Notes: generated from the sequence alone by a model not told the origin. 64,000 nt of DNA from an uncultured Chloroflexia bacterium (GCA_963700285.1 CAVOXA010000001.1:576001-640000), one strand, 5' to 3'. Numbered from the stretch's first letter, positions 1 through 38,336 are shown. Made by a program: numbers and translations.

Positions 1-208
1 AGAGGGCCTGCAGGGGGACAAAGATGTGCCCCCACTCATTGAGCCCATGGGCGATGCCAAAGGCGGCCAGCCAGGGCAGCGGGCGGGCCAGCTCCAGGTG
101 GCTGTGGCGCCGCCACTGCAAGCCCGTCACCAGGCCCATGACAAAAAAGACCTGTCCGTAGACAAAATAGAGAATAATCCAGTTGATTTCCAGGATCTGG
201 GTCAACAT
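1..208 (-). CDS. N-terminal membrane region of a probable sensor histidine kinase (partial, runs off left edge)
   Basis: Manual translation from the ATG at 208 gives MLTQILEINWIILYFVYGQVFFVMGLVTGLQWRRHSHLELARPLPWLAAFGIAHGLNEWG: two hydrophobic helices and an AFGxxHGxxEW motif that I associate with multi-TM sensor kinases. Not in the ORF track. The kinase domain would lie outside the window. Confidence 0.55.
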   Translation of the reverse strand, partial: MLTQILEINWIILYFVYGQVFFVMGLVTGLQWRRHSHLELARPLPWLAAFGIAHGLNEWGHIFVPLQAL

Positions 209-287: not shown

Positions 288-308
288 TGTCCCTGGAAAT
301 TAGGGACA
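288..308. promoter_or_regulatory. Inverted repeat, candidate regulator binding site
   Basis: TGTCCCT-N7-AGGGACA in the divergent intergenic region, with another GGGACA half-site at about 347. Confidence 0.45.
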
Positions 309-533: not shown

Positions 534-3015
534 ATGAAGTGGAAAACTGGATTGATTGTGGTAGCGGCCTTGCTCCTTCTGGCCATCCCCGTGGCCCTGA
601 CCGTGGGAGCTGCGCCAGAGAATGGCATCACATCCCCTGCTTCGGGGGAAGCCGTAAAGGGCGAGGTCTCCATTGAGGGGACTGCCACAGACCCAAATTT
701 CTGGAAGTACGAGTTGCACTATGGCCCGGATCCCAACCCTGACGGCATGTGGTTGGACCTCTTGGCACCCCAGGGCTATGTTGATTTGGCTGTGGTTGAG
801 GGGGAATTGGGCAAGTGGGATACCACCATGGTTGAGGATGGCATCTATATCCTCAAGCTGCGCGTGGTGCGCAACACAGGCCAGTACGATGACCTCCTGG
901 TGGAGGGTGTCAAGGTGGCCAATGCTGGTGATGCAGTGCCTCCAGCTGACGAACCCGCTGACGCCGAGCCTGCAGACGCTGAGCCTGCAGCCGCTGAGCC
1001 TACAGCGGCTGCCACGGAAGAACCTGAGGCAGCCGAAGAGCCCGCGGCTCCCGTAGAGACGAAGGAACTGGAGGTTCCTTTTGAGGACATGTGGGCTGGC
1101 TCGCCGCACGCCGATGCCTCAGCCGAGGCTTTCCGCCACTGGGACGAGGACGATCCAGCCGTCGTGCCCGCAAGCTGTGCCAAGTGCCACAGCGAGGGCG
1201 GCTTCCAGGACTTTCTGGGAGCCGACGGCAGCGAGGCACGGGTTGTCGATAGCGATCACGACATCAATACCGTAGTTTCCTGCGTCGCCTGCCACAACGA
1301 TGCGACGGCGACCTGGGATACGGTGGTCTTCCCCTCCGGGGCCGAGATCACCGGCCTGGGGTCGGAGGCGCGCTGCATGGAATGCCACCAGGGCCGGGCT
1401 TCGACGGTCTCTGTTGACGAGGGCATCGCCGAGGCGGGCCTCGAGGACATGGACACCGTCAGCGAGGACCTGGGCTTCACCAACATCCACTACTTTGCTG
1501 CCGCCGCGACCATGTACGGCACGCTGGCCAAGGGCGGCTACCAGTACGAGGGCAAGACGTACGACGGCAAGTTCGACCACGTCGACGGCTTTAACACCTG
1601 CATCGATTGCCACAACCCCCACACGCTGGAGCTCAAGGTCGACGACTGCGCCGCATGCCACACCGAGCAGCGACTCCAAGGACATCCGCATGCAGGGTTC
1701 CCTGGTCGACTATGATGGCGACGGCGACATGGAGGAGGGCATCTACTACGAGGTCGAAGGCCTGCAGGAGATGCTCTACGAGGCCATGCAGGCCTACGGC
1801 GCTGAGGTAGCCGGGCACGCCCATCGTCTACGACTCGCACAGCTACCCCTACTTCTTTATCGACACCGATGCCGACGGCGAGGTAGACGAAGACGAGGCT
1901 GTTCTCGCCAACGCCTACAACGCCTGGACTGGCCGCCTGGCCAAGGCCGCCTACAACTACCAGACCTCCCTGAAGGACCCGGGCGCCTACGCCCACGGCG
2001 GCAAGTACATGATCCAGCTTCTGTACGATTCCATCGAGGATCTGAACGCGGCCCTGTCCGAGCCGGTCGACCTGTCGAGCGCCAACCGCATCGACCACGG
2101 CCACTTTGCCGGTTCCGAAGAGGCATTCCGACACTGGGATGAGGACGGTGCTGTGCAGGGTAGCTGTGCCAAGTGCCACTCGGCCGCGGGCCTGCCCTTC
2201 TTCCTGGCTGAAGGAGCCAATGTCACCCAGCCGATCTCCAACGGGCTGCAGTGTGCGTCCTGCCACAGCGACCTGGAGACCTACGCTATCCACGAAGTGG
2301 CGTCAGTAGAGTTCCCCAGCGGCGCTGAGGTCGACAGCGGTGACCCCAACACCAATCTGTGCATCAACTGCCACCAGGGCCGCGAGTCCACGGCCAGCGT
2401 CAACCGCAGGATCGGTGATGCTGCGGACAATGATGTGACAGAGGGCTTGGGCTTTGCCAACGTCCACTACTTTGCCGCCGGCGCCACGCTGTTCGGCGAT
2501 GAGGTACAGGGCGCCTACCAGTTCGACGGCAAAGAGTATGCAGGCAAGAACGCGCACGTCGCCCGGCTACGCCAACTGCACCGAGTGCCACAGCGCCCAC
2601 ATGCTGGAGGTCAAGACCGACGAGTGCAGCGACCTGCCACGCGGGCATCGAGGACGTAGCCGACATCCGCATGGACAGCACCGACTATGACGGCGATGGC
2701 GACACGAGCAGTGGAATGTCCGTCGAAGTCGACCAACATGGCCGATGCGCTGTACGCTGTCTCCAGGACTATGCGGCTAGCACCGAGGGTGTCAGCGGCA
2801 TCGAGTACGACGCCCATGCCTACCCCTACTTCTTTGACGAAGAGGGCGAGCGCTATGCCACCTGGACGCCGGCGCTGCTGCGAGGGGCCTACAACTACCA
2901 GTACGCCCAGAAGGATCCCGGCGCCTTTGCCCACAACCCCAAGTACGTCATCCAGGCGCTGTACGACAGCATGGAGCATCTGGGTTGTGACGTGAGTGGC
3001 ATGACTCGACCCTAA
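534..3015 (+). CDS. Secreted decaheme cytochrome c (two tandem 5-heme modules) with N-terminal Ig-like domain and acidic Pro/Ala linker; frameshifted in assembly
   Basis: Signal peptide. Heme motifs CAKCH, CVACH, CMECH, CIDCH, CAACH, then CAKCH, CASCH, CINCH, CTECH and CSDCH (the last restored across a 1-nt insertion). Duplicated EAFRHWDED, N(I/V)HYFAA and KDPGA(Y/F)AH motifs. Joins ORFs 534-1715, 2009-2659 and 2671-3015. Confidence 0.85.
948..1004 (+). repeat. 15-bp tandem repeats encoding the (D/A)AEPA linker
   Basis: gacgccgagcctgca/gacgctgagcctgca/gccgctgagcctaca. Confidence 0.75.
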
Positions 3016-3416
3016 GTGGCCTGACCGACGTGGGCTTGTTTGGTCGAGCGGTGACCGGCTTGCTCCACAAAAGTTATGCTTGTGATGAAATCGCGCCCGG
3101 CAGGCCAGCCTGCTGGGCGCGTTGCTTGTTAAGGAGCGCTTGAGGCGTACTGGCAGGCGTCGAGTCAAGACAAGGCAAGCTCCAGGGCATTGGTAAGTGC
3201 TGCGTGCAACTCTGTGGAGGGCACAGTCGCGGTCTTACCTTTCGGGCCAGCCCCTGGGCTTCGACAGATTGACTTGTCGAGACGGCTGAGATGTGGTATG
3301 GTATGCACGTGTTCCCAACCATCCACCTTGCGAGAATGAACCTGCTTGCTTTCATAGGTATGGCTATGGCCGTCTGAGGACGTGGACCTATCTGTGGCCG
3401 ATAACGGGGGTAAGGG

Positions 3417-3900
3417 ATGAGCGACTCAGTAGAATCGAAAGAAGTCGGGACGCAGGATGGATCCGTCAGCCGTCGAGGCTTTCTCAAATACGGATTGTTG
3501 GGCTTCTCTGGGCTGGCAACGGCCGTTGGTGTCCTGACACCCGTCGTCGCCTATCTTTGGCCTCCGAAAGTGGGGGCCAGTGGATCAGGGGGGCGGGTGA
3601 CTGTGGCGTCAACGAAGGACCTGGCCCCGGGGGCGGGTGGGGTCTATTCGGTTGCCAACAAACCGGTGATGGTGATCCACACCGTCGACGATGAATATGT
3701 AGCCCTGTCAGCGACCTGCACGCATTTGGGCTGCATTCTCTTCTGGGATGTCGAACAGGCAGGTGATCGCTTGCCCGTGTCACGAAGCCTACTTTAACAC
3801 CACCGGTGCCGTGATCTCGGGACCGCCACCTTCTCCGCTTGAACCCTATCGGATCCAGGTTGAGGGGGACGAGATCGTTGTAGAGGGAGGCCAGGGCTAA
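3417..3900 (+). CDS. Rieske [2Fe-2S] subunit of a cytochrome bc complex (Tat-exported; frameshift at about 3760)
   Basis: SRRGFLK twin-Arg signal plus TM helix, CTHLGC, then in the shifted frame CPCHEAYF...SGPPP. Stop overlaps the next ATG. Confidence 0.9.
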
Positions 3901-4578
3901 TGGAAGCACAATCTCGCGTCAAGTGGTCGACACGGATAGGGGATTGGTTCGATGAACGTTTCGATGTCCGCATCCCCCTGCAAGCCTTTCTGAAAAAGCC
4001 GGTACCCAAGCACGCCATCAAATGGTACTTTTGTCTGGGTGGGATTACCTTCTCCCTATTCCTCATCCAGGGTGTTACGGGTATTCTGCTCTCCTTGTAC
4101 TACAGGCCAACGACAGAAGGGGCCTACGAGAGCATTCTGTTCATCATGAACAACGTTCGCTTTGGCTGGCTGATCCGCAGCATCCACTCCTGGTCCTCGA
4201 CCTTGATGATTGCCTTCTGTATAGGCGCACATGCTGCGAGTATTCATCACCGGTGCGTACAAGAACCCGCGCGAATTGAACTGGGTTGCCGGGGTCGCGC
4301 TCCTGTTGCTGACGCTGGCCTTTGGTTTCACAGGCTACCTGTTGCCCTGGGATCAGAAAGCGCTATGGGGGTCAACGGTGGGCAGCGAGATCCTGAGTGT
4401 CGTTCCGCTGATTGGTGGCTGGCTTCTCGGTCTGCTGCGCGCGGGTATGGAGATCACCGGCTTGACATTGACCCGCTTCTACGGGATCCACATGCTGGTT
4501 CTGCCTCTTCTGGCCTTCATCTTCCTGGCAGTCCACTTTATTATTATTCGTCGCCAGGGGATCTCGGGCCCTCTTTAG
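3900..4578 (+). CDS. Cytochrome b6-type N-terminal subunit (frameshift at about 4225)
   Basis: [24 protein letters not shown]...[20 protein letters not shown] and TLTRFYGIH motifs. Confidence 0.92.
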
Positions 4579-4602
4579 ACCGGTAACAAGGAGGCTACTG
4601 TC

Positions 4603-5076
4603 ATGGAGAATGGTGCAGAGCAAATGACCCAGCCCGGGAGCGAGCGACCACGCCGGTACAAACATCCCGAATACCGGGAAGAGGATACCATACCCTTCTT
4701 TCCCAACTATGTAATCCTCGAGGTCATCGTCAGCTTCCTTGTGCTGGCTCTCTTGATCGTGCTTGCCTCATTGCTGCCCGTCGGTTTGGAGGAAAAGGCG
4801 GATCCCTTCAGTACACCACAACACATCAAGCCAGAGTGGTATTTCCTGTGGATCTACCAGTTCATCAAGGTGCCGTCTCTCCTCATCGGCCCGGGTGTCT
4901 TGGCCGCGATGGCGGGCATCTTTATCCCGGCGATTGGTATCCTGCTCTTGTTCCTTCTGCCCTTTCTGGACCGCAGACCGGAGCGCCATCCGCGGGATCG
5001 AAAACTGGCCATGGTCATCGCTGGGTTGATCGTGATCTTTTTCGTCGCAATATCGATCTGGGGCTGGTACAGTTAG
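4603..5076 (+). CDS. Cytochrome b subunit IV (C-terminal part)
   Basis: PFFPN, ADPFSTPQHIKPEWYF (Qo-site PEWY motif), LPFLDR and three TM helices. Confidence 0.92.
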   Translation: MENGAEQMTQPGSERPRRYKHPEYREEDTIPFFPNYVILEVIVSFLVLALLIVLASLLPVGLEEKADPFSTPQHIKPEWYFLWIYQFIKVPSLLIGPGVLAAMAGIFIPAIGILLLFLLPFLDRRPERHPRDRKLAMVIAGLIVIFFVAISIWGWYS

Positions 5077-5088
5077 GGGGTGAGGACT

Positions 5089-6762
5089 ATGCGCATCATC
5101 CGGGTCATTCCAATGTTTGTGTTGCTTGTCCTCTTTCTGCTCGCCGGGACCTCGGCCTACGGCCTCCCGCTGTTGCAGATCCCGGCGGTTCCCCACCCGG
5201 TAGAGGGTCGGGACGATTGCTTGGCCTGCCACGACACGGGCCAGGTGGCTGCCTTCCCCGAGGATCATGAAGGCCGGGCAAATGAAACCTGCACCATGTG
5301 CCATGAGGCTCCCGAGGCTGGAGCCATGCCGCCGGTTCCCCACCCGATAGAGGGTCGAGATGATTGTTTGGTTTGTCACGACGAGGGCCAGTTGATGCCC
5401 TTTCCCTCAGACCACGAAGGTCGGCCTAATGAGGGCTGCCTCGACTGCCACGAGCTTGGCGAGGCCGAGGCGCCCCAGCCCACACCCGAACCCACGGCGA
5501 CGCTGCCACCGTCAGTCCAGGTCGTGCCTACCCCGATCCATGAGCCCGTCTTGTTCGAAGAGAATACCTGCGTCTCGTGCCACCGGGAACTAGGTGGGAA
5601 GCATGCCGAGATCACGACTGACTGGGAGGAGGGTATCCACGCCGCCCAGGGCGTAGGGTGTGTAAGCTGTCATGGCGGCGATCCAACGCAGGCGGACGCC
5701 GAGGCGTCGATGTCGCCCGAAGCCGGCTACTTGGGTCCCCTGCCCAAGGATCGTATCCCAGGCTTGTGTGGATCTTGCCACACGGACGTGGACTTGATGC
5801 GACCCTTTAATCTGCCGACCGATCAACTGGACCAGTACTGGCAGAGCCTGCACGGGCAGGCGCTCCTTGAGGGCGATGAAAACGTGGCGACCTGCTTTGA
5901 CTGTCATGACGGGCACAAGGTCCTAAAGACCTCGGACCCTGCATCCCAAGTGTACCCCAGCAACGAACCGGCGATGTGCGCGGGCTGCCACGGCGACGAC
6001 ATGATGATGGAACCCTATCACATTCCCACGGACCAATATGACCTTTACCAAATGAGCGTACATGGTGAGGCTTTGCTCCAGGAACAAAATCTGCGTGCGC
6101 CTACCTGTTCTACGTGTCATGGGACGCACGGCGCTGCACCACCGGGCTACCAGCAGGTGGCCAACGTGTGTGGCCAATGTCATACAGCCACGCAGGAATA
6201 CTATATGGAGGGAGCGCACCGAACCGGCATGACCGGGGAAGCCGCCCCACGCTGTGTCACCTGCCATGGCCGGTACGATGTCATGCCCGCCACGCGGGAG
6301 CTGTTTGTTGGCTCGGAGGAGCGGCATTGCGGCAGTTGCCACCCGTCCGACAGTGAGATTGGCGGGCAGGTGGAGGCGATGTACAACGCGCTGAAAGAAG
6401 CCGATGCGGTCTATGAGCAGGCAGAGGCTACCATTGCCCTTGGTGCTGAAAAACGGCTGATCATGGCTGAACAGGAGGAACTGCTCCAGAGGGCCAACAC
6501 ACCCCTGATCGAGTCCCGAGCCATGCAGCACACGGTCAACCTGGAGGAGGTTCAAGCCAAGGCTGAGGAGTCGTTGATGCTCAGCCGGGAGGCGACGGCC
6601 TCTGCTGAAGCAGCTTTGAAAGAGTTGGACACCCGTCGCCTGGGCATGATCATTGCGCTGGGCTTTATTCTCCTCACGATCGTGGCTCTGGTTCTCATCA
6701 AGCGCCAATTGGATCGGGATCTGCAGGCAGAGCGCGCACCAGCTCGTGACGACTCGGCCTAA
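5089..6762 (+). CDS. 13-heme cytochrome c with signal peptide and C-terminal membrane anchor
   Basis: 13 CxxCH motifs counted. Two N-terminal PHPxEGRDDCLxCH...HEGR...CxxCH repeats, a helical stalk and a C-terminal TM helix (LGMIIALGFILLTIVALVLIKR). Confidence 0.9.
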   Translation: MRIIRVIPMFVLLVLFLLAGTSAYGLPLLQIPAVPHPVEGRDDCLACHDTGQVAAFPEDHEGRANETCTMCHEAPEAGAMPPVPHPIEGRDDCLVCHDEGQLMPFPSDHEGRPNEGCLDCHELGEAEAPQPTPEPTATLPPSVQVVPTPIHEPVLFEENTCVSCHRELGGKHAEITTDWEEGIHAAQGVGCVSCHGGDPTQADAEASMSPEAGYLGPLPKDRIPGLCGSCHTDVDLMRPFNLPTDQLDQYWQSLHGQALLEGDENVATCFDCHDGHKVLKTSDPASQVYPSNEPAMCAGCHGDDMMMEPYHIPTDQYDLYQMSVHGEALLQEQNLRAPTCSTCHGTHGAAPPGYQQVANVCGQCHTATQEYYMEGAHRTGMTGEAAPRCVTCHGRYDVMPATRELFVGSEERHCGSCHPSDSEIGGQVEAMYNALKEADAVYEQAEATIALGAEKRLIMAEQEELLQRANTPLIESRAMQHTVNLEEVQAKAEESLMLSREATASAEAALKELDTRRLGMIIALGFILLTIVALVLIKRQLDRDLQAERAPARDDSA

Positions 6763-6964
6763 GAGCCTTTAGGCAGGGCACAGACAGTGCGAATGTGGGC
6801 ACTAGTGGGTTAGGAGCGCAGCTACAGAGCTGGCGCCAGTACAGGTCATAGCCGGGCGGGCCCGTCCAGCACCTGGACCGCTCCTTTGTGTTCGCGCGTG
6901 TGGCTGCGTCCTCGGTCTGCTCGCCCACCATCTGAGGCGATGCCACCCAGCCACAGCAGCGCAT

Positions 6965-7108
6965 TTGACACCGGAAGTACGGTATGTTATACTCTGGCCG
7001 ACTATGCTAGACTACTCAGGGCTGAGTAATTGAGGCGGTGGATTGCCGGGATAAGGTGATAGACTTGTCGCCGGCCCATTTGACACGGTTTTCACCATCT
7101 AGTATAAT
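6965..7108 (+). promoter_or_regulatory. Two tandem sigma70-type promoters
   Basis: TTGACA(6965)-N17-TATACT and TTGACA(7080)-N17-TATAAT. Confidence 0.75.
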
Positions 7109-7165
7109 CCAGAGACAGAGTATTGCGATCAGAGACTGATCGCGTTGCTGCACTGGGAGGTGTAT

Positions 7166-9485
7166 GTGACTGATTCAATGGAGAGGAAGGTCGACTCGAC
7201 CGAGCAAGTGTCCGAGCCGGCGGAGAGCAAGACTGGCTCGACGGGGCTGCCGTCCGAGCCAAACGGCAAGAAGGGCGGGAACGGCAAGCGGGCTGTACGG
7301 CTGGGTGTGATTATCGGTGCGGCCTTTATCATTGGCTTCATCGTGTTTGGCGTCATCGCCATCATGGTCTGGGACTATTCCAACAGTGTAGCCTTCTGCG
7401 CCGATGCCTGTCACGATGTACACCCCGAAGAGATCCACGCCTTTAGGGACTCGTACCACGCCAACGTCAGGTGCACCGAGTGCCACATGGGCCGGGTAGG
7501 TACTCTCAACAACATTGTCCTCAAGGCCAGCCACGCTCGCCATCTGCCCGAAGTGATCTTTGACTCCTACGACCGCCCCCTGGAATCGGCGACGATGCGC
7601 CCCGCCAACGAGTCCTGCGAACTCTGCCACTTTCCTCCTGCTTTCCACGGCGATACCGTCCGGAAAGTCACGCGCTTTCAATCGGATGAGGAAAACACAG
7701 AGAAGGATACCTATCTGATCCTCAAGACCGGGGCGGGCACACGGAATGAGGGCCTGGGCTACGGCATTCATTGGCACATCACCAATCCTGTGGAGTATAT
7801 TGCCGGGGACGAGCACAAGCAGGACATCCGCTGGGTGCGGACGACGCTGCCTGACGGCCGGACCGTGGAGTACAGCGATGTCACCAACCCCCTGACACCG
7901 GAGGAGATCGAAGCCGCCGAAAAGAAGACCATGGACTGCGTCGATTGCCACAACCGCATGGGCCATCCCTTCCCCTCTCCAGAAGACTTGGTGGACCAGG
8001 CTTTGGCCGACGGGAGTCTGAGTTCAGATCTGCCCTATGCCAAGGAATCAATGCTGGACCTGCTCTCGGCCGACTATGAGACCCAGGAGGCGGCCCTGGA
8101 GGCTGCGGCTGCGACCAGGGAGCAGTACGAGGCTGCATACCCTGAGGCAGCGGCCGCTTACCCGGAGGAGATAGACCAGGCTCAGCAACTGGCTGAGGAA
8201 CTGATTAAACGATTGATATTTGAGGAGCCGGGCGTTACCTGGCAGTCCTTCCCGGACGACAACAAGCACAAGGACTTTCCCGGCTGCTTCCGCTGCCACG
8301 ACGGCAACCATGTGAGCGAAGAGGGTGAGTCGATCCGGCTGCAGTGCAATATCTGTCACAGTGTGCCAGCAACAGTGGAGGCGGGGGACCGTCCGCCACA
8401 GCTGCCGCTGGCCTACATCCAGGAGCCAGCGTCGCACCTGGAAACCAATTTCATGGCCGACCACCGCTTCCAGGCGAACGGTGACTGCGAGGAGTGCCAT
8501 GGCGAGATTGCCTTTGGCAGTGACGACTCCTCCTTCTGTGCCAACTCGTCCTGCCACGGAAAGGCCTGGCCGATGGTTGAGCTGGATGCTGCTTTTGAGC
8601 ACCCCATCGAGCTGGAGGGCAAGCATGCGGAGGTTTGGTGCCACGACTGCCACGAGGGGGTGCGGGAACCCGAATACGCATGTGCCAACTGCCACGAGGC
8701 ACCCCAGCCCCACTTTGGCGACCTGTGCGAGGACTGCCATACGCCGGCCGGCTTTGAGGGAGCGGACATGGGCAACTTTGAGCATCCCGTGCCCGCTGGA
8801 CGGCGCTCACGCCAACACTGGTTGTAGCGATTGTCATGTTGAGGGCCGGGAGCTGACCGGCTCCTGCGCCGACTGCCACCAGCCGCCCAGCGAGCCCCAC
8901 TTTGGGCCCAACTGCGAGGACTGCCACACGCCAACGGACTTTGCCGATGCAACTTTGCCAGCCGAGCTGCACCCGGTGGCGCTGGAGGGTGCCCACCTGA
9001 CTGCCTCCTGTGACGGATGCCATGTCGAGGGCCAGGAGATGCCCGAGTTTGTGTGCAGCAACTGCCACGAGCCACCCCAGGACCACTATGGCCTCAACTG
9101 TGAGGACTGCCACACGCCAACTAGCTTTACCGATGCCAGTCTGCCGGCGGGAATGCATCCAATTGCGCTGGAGGGCGCCCACGCGACGGCTAGCTGCGGT
9201 GCCTGTCACGTCGAAGGTCAGGAGATGCCCGAGTTTGTTTGTAGCAACTGCCACGAAGCGCCGGACAACCACCTGGCAGGTGAGTGCGAAACCTGTCACA
9301 AGCCTGAGGGCTTTGCCCGATCCGCTGCTCTCCTGGTGAATCTGGCGCCGCCGATCGAACACGATCTCTCTGGACGGGACAACTGCCTGGCATGCCACGA
9401 TCCAGAGGGACAGATCAAGCCTGCACCATCCAACCACATCGAGTATGAGAACGAGCAGTGCACCCTTTGTCATAAGGCTGAGTAA
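7166..9485 (+). CDS. NapC/NirT-headed membrane-anchored 22-heme cytochrome c (frameshift at about 8790)
   Basis: GGAGG RBS before GTG. N-terminal TM helix followed by the NapC-like FCADACH...SYH..VRCTECH. 11 heme motifs before and 11 after the frameshift, including one CX3CH and one CX4CH. Four HPxxLxGxH tri-heme repeats. Confidence 0.85.
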
Positions 9486-9794
9486 ATGCTACTGACCTCT
9501 TATAAGCCCAATAGCTTTGACGGCTCCGTAGCCGATCCGGCCTATGCCGAGCCGCCGCTCAAGATCTCTGACGACGCAGGTCGCTACGAGCAAAAGCGGG
9601 GAGTGGAGGACGACTATGGTCAGCCGGGGATGCTTTACTGCCTGATGCCGCCCGATGAGCAGGAGCGCCTTGTTACCAACATCGCGGGTACTCTCAAGAA
9701 AGTGCCCAAGGAGATCCAGCAAAAGATGGTGGAACGTTTTACCATGGCTGCCCCGGCCTACGGAGCTGGTGTGGCAAAAGGACTGGGACTGTGA
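9486..9794 (+). pseudogene. C-terminal remnant of a monofunctional catalase
   Basis: YKPNSFDG...EPPL...DDYGQPG...ERLVTNIA...YGAGVAKGLGL matches the catalase C-terminal helical region. No catalytic N-terminal part upstream. Confidence 0.75.
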
Positions 9795-35295: not shown

Positions 35296-38200
35296 TCATC
35301 CCGCCCCCTCCACAATCCCAATCTCCTCCGCCGTCAGCTCATACAACTCATACACCAATCGGTCGATCTGCCGGTCCGTAGCCTCAATCTGCCGGTCCAA
35401 CAGCGCCTTGTCTCCCGGCACAGTCGCCACCGCCAGCCTCTTGTGCAGCTCCAGCATGCGTTCGACGAGTGCAACCATCTGGTCGTGTCGGGCGACGTCG
35501 GTCGGGCTGCCAAAGTTGATCATACGGATGGGAAGCTGTTCTATGAACTTGGTCCAGAAGCGCACGTAGCCGCCCCTCAAGGTCGTGCCGATGTGGAGCA
35601 GATATCGAAAGAGAAGAGGCGTATTGACCAAGCCGAGTATGTAGAGCGGAGACACAGAGGTCTCATCCCGTGTCAGAATGCCATAACCGGTCTTGTAGAA
35701 ATGTCCACTATCATCGTAAGTGAATGACGCCCTGTTGTTATAATCAGGGACAACCAGCTTGGGGCGCTGAAATAGAGTCATGCTTTTGGGATAGCCAAAC
35801 GCGAACCAGTTGCTGCCTTTGAATTTGCCTCTCTCACGAGCTGCCAAAGCTCCCTTGTGCTGCCTCAGATAAGAGTAGCTTAGTGGGTACTGGCTCGAAA
35901 GCTCTTGTTCAGAGACAAGGCGGCAGTCATCCTGGCTGATGACGTACGGGCAGATAAGAAAAGCTTGAGCCTCAAGGGGCTCGTATCGCCGAATGTCCTT
36001 TCCGCGCAGGAAAGGCACTACAATACCTGCCTCGATCTTTACCTCATGCCCTGAAGCCTTGCTCGTCCCCACAATGAGATTCTGCTGCAACTGGCAGTTC
36101 TCCAGAACAAAGACCTGATCGGCGCTCGTCTGCGTTCCCACAAAAATATGTGCAAGATCACCAAGGCTGACCGGCATTGCGCTCAGTCGGTGAAGGAGTG
36201 GCTTTTCTGGCCCAACCACAAAATGCCACTCCGGGGAAGTCGCCTCTTGGGCGCTGACTTCCCCGTCAATAGCCTCACCGCTGGACCTCCAGGCATCCAA
36301 GTCCTCTGCCAAGAAAAAGTGGAATTGCTGTTGGCGCTTCCTCTGCAAAAAGAGCAGACAAGTATAGGTGGTCGCGAGGTCAAACACCTGTTGGTCGCCA
36401 AAATGGACGATCTCTGCCAGGTGGCCGCCGTCAGCGATGAGCTTGCGCAGCGGCTCGCCGTACTCTGCCTGGAAGAACTTGTGAGGCAGGATGTACCCCA
36501 TCCGTCCCTGCTCGTTCAGCAGTTGGAGCGCCCTCTCCACAAAAACTACATAGATGTCATAGTTGCCCTTGCTTGCCGCCACATAGCACTGTTTATAGAG
36601 CTCAACCTCCGTCGGCGCCCACTCTTTCATCCTCTGGATTCTGATATACGGCGGATTGCCAATTACACAGTCAAAGCCACCCGCTGCCATTGGCTCGGGA
36701 AACTCGGACTGCCAATCGAAGGGATTGATCCGCCGCACCTCCTCCTGGTCCGGCACAAGCTGCCCCTCAAAATAGTCCCACCCAATCAACGAATTCCCAC
36801 ACTTGATATTCTCTCCCAGATCCGGCAGCGCCCGCTCCCGCCAGAGACTGAGCTGCTGCCCCAGCGTCTCCTCCGTCTCCCCCTCCAGCACCTTCAGCAG
36901 CAGGCTCAGCTTTGTCACCTCCACCGCCTGCCGGTCCAGGTCCACCCCATAGATGTGGTCCAGCAGGATCCGCTTCTTCTCCCCCGTCGTCAGCCGCCAG
37001 TCGCCCGCCCGGCCCCTGGTAGACCGCCGGCTCCTTGCCCGCCGCGTGCTTCGCCGGGTCGTTCGCCTCGTACCAGCTCCGGTAGTGGTCCAGCAGGAAC
37101 TGGTACGCCCCCAGCAGGAACGACCCCGACCCGCACGCCGGGTCCAGCACCCGCAGCGGCGGCTTGCCCCGCGTCCCCCGCAACTGCCGCGGCGACTTGC
37201 CCTCCACCAGCACCCCCACCGTCTGCGCCACGATATAGTCCACGATGTACGAGGGCGTGTAATAGACGCCCCCCGCCTTCTTGACCTCCGGCTTTTCCTC
37301 GACCACGGCCCGGTGCGCGGGCGTCAGCCGGATCACCTTGCCCAGGAACTGCTCGTACACCTGGCCCAGGACCTCCACCGGCAGCACCGAGAACTCGTAT
37401 GGGCTCTGCGGGTAGTACAGGCAGCCCAGGATCGGCTTCAGCACCTTGTCGTCGATGCGTCAGTCCCCGCGTCAGCGTATCCGCCCGAAAGTCAAACAGC
37501 CCCGAGTTGTACTTCTCATCCGCCTGGCGGTACAGATCCCCCATCCGCTCATAGATCCGCCCCCCGTTCGTCAGCGCCAGCAGCCGCCCGTAGGCCTCGA
37601 TCCCCCGGTCCTCCGCCATCCGCAAAAAGATGATCCGGTCGATCGTCCGCTGCACCGCAAAATTCAGCTCCTGCACCGTCAGCGCCGGGTTCCGCAGCGC
37701 CAGGTTCCGCGCCAGCGCATCCCGCCAGCCCTCGATCTCTTTCAGGAACTCGGCGTCCACCTCGCTCGTGCCCCGCTTGCCCTTCGTATCCTCCACGTAG
37801 CGGTCGAACGACCCTTTGAGCACCGATTCCCTGGCGAATACGTCGTATACCTCGTCAAAGTGTTGCAGGTACTCGTCGAAGGTCAGGTACAGGATGCGGG
37901 CGGCCGCCGACTTGTCCGCCGGCTTGGGCCGTATCCGGCAGTCATAGACCGCAAACTCTTCGAAATCGGTCAGAATGCTCAGCGGCAGCTTGGCGCTCCA
38001 CGCGTACCGCCGCAACTGGTACGCCGGACCCACGTCCCCGTGCACCGAGATCGCCGGCTTTTTCGCCTCCACGAAAAACTTGCGCACCCCGCCCACCCGG
38101 AAGCAATAATCCGGCGCCCGCGCCGCACCCGCCACCGTCAGCGCGTCCTCGTGCACCACGTCCTTATACTGCTCCGCGTACCCCTTCACATTCCGCACAT

Positions 38201-38336
38201 CCCAGCCCAGCGCCTCAAAAAACGGGTCAATAAACTCAACCCGCGCCCGAGCCTCCTTATAATCCGGCCGCGTATAAACATCCCGATTACGTTGGAACCG
38301 TTCGACCAAATCCACAACTTGGGAGGGTACACTCAT
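35296..38336 (-). CDS. Fused restriction endonuclease-N6-adenine methyltransferase-TRD (Type IIG/Eco57I-like); frameshifts at about 37450 and 37010
   Basis: N-terminal FIDPFFEALGWD...PDY...FVEAKKP nuclease. GGVYYTP, LDPACGSGSFL and GNPPY methyltransferase motifs. TaqI_C-like TRD and DRQIDRLVYELY C-terminus. Confidence 0.88.

Follow-up and report, generated by a model that had tools for sequence, protein, structure and literature searches.

When a Rieske/cytochrome b complex is encoded among long multihaem cytochromes, with no oxidase gene beside it, where do its electrons go? The question is raised by a stretch of 64,000 nucleotides from an uncultured Chloroflexia bacterium (GCA_963700285.1 CAVOXA010000001.1:576001-640000), hereafter the window, in which six co-oriented genes, all on the + strand, occupy positions 534..9485. 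An earlier note on this DNA had described a block of Rieske protein, split cytochrome b6/subunit IV and cytochromes of 10, 13 and 22 haems (about 45 in all), free of porin, molybdoenzyme and oxidase genes, and had read it as two parallel quinol exits, one coupled to a Q-cycle and one not, that feed an extracellular acceptor without a porin. Our analysis favours, at somewhat better than an even chance, an outward flow of electrons in which a Q-cycle branch serves acceptors of high potential: the Rieske/b6/IV complex, an ImcH-like protein and a decahaem cytochrome would form a branched chain from membrane quinol to extracellular acceptors.

The composition of the block is as the note had it. Open-reading-frame (ORF) reading and a profile scan gave the coordinates of the six genes, and the Rieske (PF00355), cytochrome b6 (PF00033), subunit IV (PF00032) and NapC/NirT (PF03264) families each scored above the Pfam cut-off. 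A six-frame scan corrected with RNA contigs counted 45 haem motifs (10 + 13 + 22), in agreement with an ortholog of the 22-haem protein in a genome of the same genus (G001), and the 54.5 kb of the window outside the block hold 11 scattered loose matches; no porin, molybdoenzyme or oxidase gene lies within 534..9485. Several genes are broken, with frameshifts near 1670, 1814, 2560 and 2630 (gene 1), 3757, 4230 and 8790 by comparison with intact relatives, and the polishing of these breaks had been called for. Gene 1 has nine readable CxxCH motifs across frames, its tenth being disrupted by an extra base at 2629. Five gene 1 indels (1811, 2561, 2629, 2730 and 2757) are absent from near-identical RNA contigs and are probably assembly errors; the remaining breaks, outside the near-identical contigs listed, fall in genes that are whole in relatives, such as gene 6, which is one 779-aa frame with 22 motifs in G001. 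Since the RNA contigs lack the five indels and relatives carry the genes whole, the frameshifts are treated here as assembly errors, and their interpretation as marks of pseudogenes was rejected.

The first quinol exit is encoded by three adjacent genes. The Rieske [2Fe-2S] protein (3417..3900, +; PF00355 and PF25471, frameshift near 3757) has both cluster boxes, CTHLGC and CPCHEAYF, and an N-terminal anchor (helix 27-45) that is twin-arginine-like. Cytochrome b6, the N-terminal half of cytochrome b (3900..4578, +; frameshift near 4230), has the haem bL/bH ligands at His 96, 110, 197 and 212 in an intact ortholog (G012), and the same His stretches are readable on both sides of the frameshift in the window. 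Subunit IV (4603..5076, +) has three helices and the Qo motif PEWY, here KPEWY; PEWY was found in 64 of the 68 motif matches across 76 related loci. The YFCLGG stretch of cytochrome b6 contains the Cys of CxGG, with Phe directly before it, and this Cys is missing in most distant relatives. The rule for covalent haem ci combines CxGG with an upstream Tyr (PMC4122944), and the motif gives a hint of haem ci that is confined to this clade.

Which acceptors such a complex could serve depends on the potential of its cluster. In the second Rieske box (CPCH-E-A-Y-F), Ala and Phe stand in place of the potential-raising Ser and Tyr; in the yeast protein, loss of Ser or Tyr lowered the potential by 130 or 65 mV (PMC12954380), and potentials near +0.1 V occur in complexes working with low-potential quinones (PMC4122944). 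Because both residues are replaced, we infer a potential near +0.1 V, and the Q-cycle branch would therefore serve high-potential acceptors only. Most low-potential Rieske/cytochrome b complexes have been linked to PDWY and not PEWY, heliobacteria being among the exceptions (PMC4122944).

The place usually taken by cytochrome c1 or f is occupied by gene 5 (5080..6762, +; a single intact frame). Its 13-haem product comprises a signal peptide, two dihaem modules, a nonahaem core, a three-helix bundle and a C-terminal membrane anchor, and its hydrophobic stretches (residues 6-24 and 522-540) give it the topology of cytochrome c1/f. On the basis of gene order and anchor topology, it would be the acceptor subunit of the Rieske/cytochrome b complex. 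Across 69 sequences of the nonahaem core, seven His and two Met are conserved outside the motifs; the core could thus be fully six-coordinate, and because there is one possible distal ligand for each of the nine haems, it suits a wire better than an enzyme. The model of the core (pLDDT 91.6) matches the HAO fold with Z 10.2 and rmsd 5.0, where unrelated helical bundles reach Z 9.6, and the HAO-like likeness is a lead only. Sequence searches of solved structures with the 13-haem protein gave short NrfA matches only. CbcL-type proteins encoded at these loci have a haem domain to which the core is distantly related (24% identity, pairwise E 1e-31). Chloroflexota acceptor subunits have 9 to 24 haems, with added N-terminal dihaem modules, and those of 18 non-Chloroflexota loci (L117-L135) have exactly 9 and no dihaem module. 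The same dihaem module also ends gene 6 and so lies at the far end of both anchored chains.

How far does this arrangement extend? A scan of species genomes returned 479 stretches encoding a relative, of which the best 76 loci were examined; the relatives are kin, so that locus counts are not independent, and many loci end at contig ends. Rieske, cytochrome b and nonahaem core are adjacent in 61 of the 76 (45 of 56 with Chloroflexota titles, 16 of 20 others). The conserved unit is the Rieske protein, cytochrome b6, subunit IV and the C-anchored nonahaem-core cytochrome, and the other genes of the block are variable neighbours. In a set of 61 relatives, not to be confused with the 61 loci, gene 6 has a counterpart in 28, gene 1 in 24 and the 13-haem gene in 17 (11 of 22 in the family; one match is to the dihaem module only). 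Across the phylum the unit is rare, the 13-haem gene being matched in 5 of 251 genomes sampled. The synteny that the earlier note had wanted examined across Chloroflexota thus holds for the core and not for the rest of the block.

The second quinol exit is gene 6 (7145..9485, +), with 20 CxxCH motifs, one CX3CH and one CX4CH, split by the frameshift near 8790. Its NapC/NirT core, of one helix and six haems, is followed by 16 more haems up to the terminal dihaem module; PF03264 was matched at 31.8 bits (cut-off 24.1) and NrfH at E 3e-4. With ImcH (GSU3259) it shares the NapC/NirT-like domain and a CX3CH by the helix, and it has a Lys and a Tyr spaced as K173 and Y188 are. Among homologs, CX3CH is the first motif beside the membrane helix in 119/120; with equivalence judged by spacing from the haem-1 His and numbered as in 10.1101/2023.05.03.539133, the Lys is present in 120/120 and the Tyr in 115/120, while His replaces Gln179 in 120/120 and Asn replaces Glu127 in 119/120. 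An acidobacterial protein laid out like ImcH shares 36% identity with gene 6 across 362 aa. The strict ImcH criteria call for three helices and 6-10 haems, the range in surveyed homologs (PMC6295460), against one helix and 22 haems here; by these sequence features, gene 6 is classed as ImcH-like and not as a strict member of the family, and a one-helix ImcH homolog is on record from Anaerolinea thermophila (PMC6295460). ImcH is electroneutral, since its protons are released on the side to which its electrons go (10.1101/2023.05.03.539133), and gene 6 would therefore fit the uncoupled branch that had been proposed. The idea of two parallel exits is in this way supported by PEWY, Rieske and b-haem His on the one side and by the ImcH-like signatures on the other. 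No plasmid-borne homolog of gene 6 was found.

Both chains need a terminal protein, and the candidate is gene 1 (534..3015, +; frameshifted in the assembly), a secreted or anchored decahaem cytochrome made of two tandem five-haem modules. Its family is large (5382 matches among 7999 candidates scored; 1345 clusters at 50% identity) and has the module in one, two or three copies. A strict pattern detects a lipobox in 92 of 120 homologs; in the window gene, a signal-like helix and an additional N-terminal domain stand in its place, and a surface location is predicted from the export signal. Compared with 48,161 chains, a model built for an intact ortholog (pLDDT 88.7) gave OcwA as the best fold match (Z 11.5, rmsd 3.8, 217 aligned) and OmhA as the second (Z 10.6). 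Each module matches OcwA residues 281-525, a C-terminal portion that includes the helix bundle. OcwA of Thermincola potens (6I5B) and OmhA of Carboxydothermus ferrireducens (6QVM) serve monoderm metal reducers as terminal reductases at the cell surface (PMC6703420, PMC7829351), so that the two top folds support an outward role. The likeness lies in the modelled fold: gene 1 has two five-haem repeats and no c554-like half, whereas OcwA and OmhA carry their haems, nine or eleven of them, in a single series of domains, and its conserved His-Tyr is a possible counterpart of the OcwA His-His pair. There was no sequence or profile match with 6I5B or 6QVM (identity 16-20%), and sequence searches of solved structures gave no useful match, OmcS alone appearing at E 9e-4 over 60 positions. 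Foldseek returned no E <0.001 for this model or that of the nonahaem core, and the ESM Atlas gave generic cytochrome names only. The C-terminus of the decahaem may bear some likeness to Geobacter OmcB. A second, stand-alone decahaem paralog of about 50% identity lies elsewhere in the host genome (G000 C10:1715057-1717743, L057).

The same comparison raises another possibility, namely that the decahaem consists of two NrfA-like catalytic modules that reduce soluble nitrite, hydroxylamine, NO or sulfur species, and that it draws electrons from the Rieske complex and the ImcH-like protein as NrfA draws them from NrfH. NrfA-family enzymes match the gene 1 model at Z 7.5-9.7 and a single module at Z 9.3-10.1, unrelated folds reaching 5.4 at most, and the module has the five haems and three-helix bundle of the NrfA fold. 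For its five haems it conserves six His outside the motifs, and its invariant His-Tyr might shape a catalytic pocket. OcwA, for its part, has catalytic haems that are open and is a slow reducer of nitrite (PMC6703420); haem 1 of each gene 1 module may likewise be open, or else bis-His. However, CxxCK occurs in 0/120 homologs, PF02335 (the NrfA family) was not reached (15.7 bits against a cut-off of 24.1), and five non-motif His are invariant in an alignment of seven homologs, enough for five bis-His haems. As NrfA of the CxxCH type exist, NrfA-like activity is nevertheless compatible with these motifs. Of the catalytic haem signature that the earlier note had named as a danger to its proposal, then, the fold and the His-Tyr are present and CxxCK is not. 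Gene neighbourhoods are also divided: gene 1 directly precedes a NapC/NirT-type gene in G011, and single-module homologs adjoin nqr-like operons in diderm alphaproteobacteria, but the decahaem slot of G016 holds an MtrC-like protein, and haem chains of this length would be unnecessary for a soluble substrate. Taken together, we consider a soluble-substrate reductase rather unlikely, although it is the strongest rival of the outward reading.

In relatives, the decahaem has a range of neighbours. It stands beside the Rieske block in G001, G004, G006, G007, G008, G012, G015 and G019, beside an ImcH-like gene alone in G011, beside CbcL-like and ImcH-like genes in G021 and G014, and beside a CbcL-like gene alone in G058; it pairs interchangeably with Rieske, ImcH-like or CbcL-like quinol exits. 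Gene 1 is found in 19 of the 45 Chloroflexota core loci, an ImcH-like gene in 20 and a CbcL-like cytochrome b in 14, and 23 of the 28 such loci of at least 15 kb also have a decahaem, MtrC-like, ImcH-like or CbcL-like gene. The protein in the decahaem slot of G016 is an MtrC/F-like decahaem (PF22113, 88 bits against a cut-off of 30). The diderm relatives L118, L126 and L132 have a DmsE/MtrA decahaem over the cut-off, L132 with an MtrB/PioB porin over the cut-off as well; an MtrA-type decahaem or its large partner gene is present in 5 of the 20 non-Chloroflexota loci, the porin family score being confirmed in L132 only. The MtrC-like swap and these MtrA/MtrB-type pairs in some diderm relatives lend support to an outward role. 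Some loci carry several exits together: CbcL-like, ImcH-like and Rieske exits with a decahaem in L101:970-18017 (which also has an MtrC-like gene) and L109, the three exits in L086, and ImcH-like, decahaem and Rieske genes in L089.

If electrons leave the cell, is the missing porin an obstacle? The host genome (7.05 Mb, 89% complete), whose named homologs and related-locus titles are mainly Anaerolineae or Chloroflexota, has no match to Omp85/BamA, the control being matched in 7 of 14 genomes. By tblastn, it yielded no match to MtrB-type queries and only a weak c-type match to MtrA, and a TIGR03509 search had no match, the control being likewise without one. By these searches, the host appears monoderm, without an outer membrane, and it differs from MtrCAB/Pcc systems in that no MtrB-type porin with an MtrA-type decahaem was found. 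Since BamA is not detectable, the absence of a porin is to be expected, as noted before for Anaerolineales (PMC7399161), and its treatment as an unusual feature was rejected. An outward role remains the best reading and has gained comparative support. Genes for cytochrome c maturation are present.

Rieske/cytochrome b complexes normally end at an oxidase, and the host genome has two haem-copper oxidase loci, aa3-type and B-type. The haems might thus be a store or relay, charged anoxically and discharged to oxygen via either oxidase, and the haem number of the acceptor subunit (9 to 24) is compatible with a capacitor. Yet other complexes could serve the oxidases: another Rieske/cytochrome b locus, which also encodes two dihaem cytochromes (G000 C14:135382-138497), and a cluster (G000 C10:202023-208644) that we take, from its layout, to be alternative-complex-III-like, which brings the quinol:cytochrome c systems of the genome to three. 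Moreover, COX1 had no match in any of the 61 core loci, whose neighbours are CbcL-like, ImcH-like, MtrC-like and MtrAB genes. This makes an oxidase-linked store decidedly unlikely. As to a known terminal reductase encoded elsewhere, the two oxidases could take electrons from the complex, and NrfA and NosZ were not found in the host genome; the NarG and NapA cut-offs were not reached by any scanned frame of its molybdoenzyme loci.

The chain could also run inward, from reduced minerals, humics, sulfide or partner cells to quinone, possibly through a reversed Rieske complex. CbcL/MtoC-type proteins and MtrAB-type conduits occur in metal oxidisers as well as reducers (PMC6295460), and the oxidases would be available as a sink. 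Within the same survey, however, ImcH homologs occur in Fe(III) reducers only (PMC6295460), and the closest folds of the decahaem are those of terminal reductases, and inward flow is accordingly very unlikely.

Outward transfer would proceed as follows. Quinol, itself an assumption, would be oxidised at PEWY, one electron passing to the Rieske protein and the other returning via the b haems, a presumed turnover in which the Q-cycle would move extra charge. A Q-cycle branch would add about one translocated charge per electron. The 13-haem protein, to judge from gene order and anchor topology, would replace cytochrome c1/f, and its dihaem modules would pass electrons outward. By analogy with ImcH, gene 6 would oxidise quinol without a Q-cycle and send the electrons along its own chain. 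Both chains might then reduce the decahaem as an OcwA/OmhA-like surface terminal reductase, with Fe(III)/Mn(IV) minerals, humics or partner cells as acceptors, the Q-cycle branch operating with high-potential acceptors only and the ImcH-like branch with lower ones. In favour of this scheme are the core in 61 of 76 loci, the absence of COX1 from them, the lipobox in 92 of 120 homologs, the lack of BamA, NrfA, NosZ, NarG and NapA matches, and the presence of RNA (see below).

Several observations weigh against it. Both the acceptor and the direction of flow are predictions from genes and modelled folds; NrfA-family enzymes nearly match OcwA in fold score; the oxidases are possible electron takers; and two menaquinone-pathway markers were both below the cut-off in the 89% complete genome. 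Genes 6 and 1 are frequently distant from the Rieske core in relatives, and 15 of the 20 non-Chloroflexota loci have no MtrA/MtrB-type gene within the locus DNA examined. Furthermore, a single-module gene 1 homolog is found on five alphaproteobacterial plasmids, divergent to an nqr-like operon in four of the five, with no annotated porin within 9 kb of those four genes; it is probably periplasmic, so that it may act as a soluble-substrate reductase or an electron sink. Finally, because a GC-rich, terminator-like hairpin of 13 pairs follows gene 1 (3092..3121, +) and two sigma-70 consensus promoters precede gene 6 (6965..7108, +; 6965-6993 with 11/12 matches and 7080-7108 with 12/12), the block is probably several transcription units, with separate promoters for three parts, and not one operon. 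In the nqr-like operons of the four plasmids (NZ_CP067130, NZ_CP029209, NZ_CP015737 and NZ_CP060437; L145-L148), the NqrB-like subunit is only about 257 aa long; the operon may encode an NQR variant that exports electrons to the periplasmic cytochrome, and its carriers are cultured hosts.

The block has its own candidate for regulation. The 5' end of a gene for a membrane sensor histidine kinase (1..208, −; running on upstream of the window) is divergent to gene 1, and such a kinase is present in 15 of the 76 related loci. The kinase of a relative matches G000 C1:576208-575462 at 70% by tblastn, and response-regulator genes come after it. Its upstream part matches PF07730 (HisKA_3), and its N-terminal membrane part (window 1-208, −; L040:7001-8449) has no Pfam match. 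A stretch AFGxxHGxxEW recurs in that part, and the kinase could sense the redox state of haem or quinone. Between kinase and gene 1 lies a palindrome, TGTCCC-N9-GGGACA (288..308). Of 19 matching intergenic regions 15 contain it, where shuffles give 0.49 on average, and it is a likely regulator site. Kinase and palindrome belong to the block; genome-wide, the palindrome has one convincing site only, and a wider regulon was not found.

Near-identical RNA contigs cover much of gene 1 in all seven sediment metatranscriptomes compared (7/7) and parts of gene 6 in at least five libraries. The region from the Rieske to the 13-haem gene is almost uncovered (one 251-base piece, the 13-haem gene having one piece in one library), and a control region at 10-20 kb is also near-bare; the runs were chosen by shared words, and the contigs indicate presence in libraries and cannot give levels or rank genes. 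Contigs of gene 1 end at 3029-3066, before the hairpin, a weak hint of termination.

One of the closest known systems is Geobacter Cbc6/ExtMNOPQS (GSU2930-2935), a proposed quinol-oxidising and possibly proton-pumping step of metal respiration (PMC2825233, PMC5877670), where a conserved cluster likewise brings together a Rieske protein, the two parts of a split cytochrome b (ExtP/ExtQ) and c-type cytochromes with several haems. The proteins differ: cytochrome b6 scored 259 against the ExtP cut-off of 290, subunit IV 29 against 150 for ExtQ and the 13-haem protein 18 bits against 800 for ExtM, with which its identification was rejected; moreover, the block here has no porin or ExtKL gene, and its host is apparently monoderm. 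A further comparison is with CbcL (GSU0274). CbcL-type proteins have a haem domain distantly related to the nonahaem core, and split CbcL-like pairs adjoin the decahaem in relatives, but the core is paired with a Rieske/cytochrome b6, whereas in CbcL the FdnI-type cytochrome b is part of a fusion. Anammox Rieske/cytochrome b complexes share the split cytochrome b/subunit IV, an anchored multihaem subunit and the weak HAO-like core fold; unlike them, the block has no NAD(P)-linked subunit, and its Rieske protein lacks the Ser and Tyr, the anammox potentials having been measured at +303 and +335 mV (PMC12954380). Geobacter also has potential-tiered quinol exits, ImcH, CbcL and CbcBA (10.1101/2021.04.15.440034). 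Every part therefore has a precedent: a Rieske/b complex with multihaem proteins in Geobacter and anammox bacteria, tiered exits in Geobacter, and porin-free export in Thermincola and Carboxydothermus. Large multihaem cytochromes were already known in Anaerolineae (10.1101/2021.08.23.457424), for which extracellular respiration had been suggested with the pathway undefined (10.1101/2021.08.23.457424; PMC7399161). A literature search, with subscription journals thinly covered, found no description of a Rieske-nonahaem module in Chloroflexota or Acidobacteria, and passages from a survey of Desulfuromonadia cytochromes (PMC11492766) and from a study of Desulfobacterota (PMC12133095) add nothing on it.

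Some further features were seen in passing. Immediately after the gene 6 stop lies a 102-aa C-terminal remnant of a catalase (9486-9794; PF06628), which was not found at the equivalent place in G001 and is covered by near-identical RNA contigs, and at 35296-38336 (−) the ORF list contains a frameshifted gene resembling a fused restriction-modification enzyme. Elsewhere in the host genome, an island upstream of the block (G000 C1:548000-571000; L022, L001) with two modules of NrfC/NrfD and multihaem cytochromes (about 23, 8 and 15 motifs), tandem rhodanese proteins and two-component genes resembles a sulfur-respiration module. The 3' part of an OmcA/MtrC-like gene (G000 C10:1915727-1917354, L143) lies directly downstream of an IS630 transposase and looks interrupted. 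There are also a 913-aa lipoprotein with five separate haem motifs (G000 C10:657691-660432) and a NiFe hydrogenase with a seven-haem cytochrome after it (G000 C9:234720-239416).

What would the block mean for its host? Anaerolineae are common in sediments, and the block supplies candidate entry points, relays, a terminal protein and a regulator site for their extracellular respiration. A more ambitious picture, which we put forward tentatively and hold to be doubtful, is that Anaerolineae have a three-gear, potential-tuned extracellular respiration without an outer membrane, with the Q-cycle as the top gear and the ImcH-like and CbcL-like exits below it, the dihaem module handing electrons to an OcwA-fold surface cytochrome and a two-component system acting as the switch. 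The wider question is how energy is conserved during outward electron transfer, ImcH being electroneutral (10.1101/2023.05.03.539133), and the Rieske route is predicted to save extra energy. If the three-gear picture is true, Q-cycle-coupled extracellular electron transfer would operate in one of the most abundant uncultured lineages of sediments.

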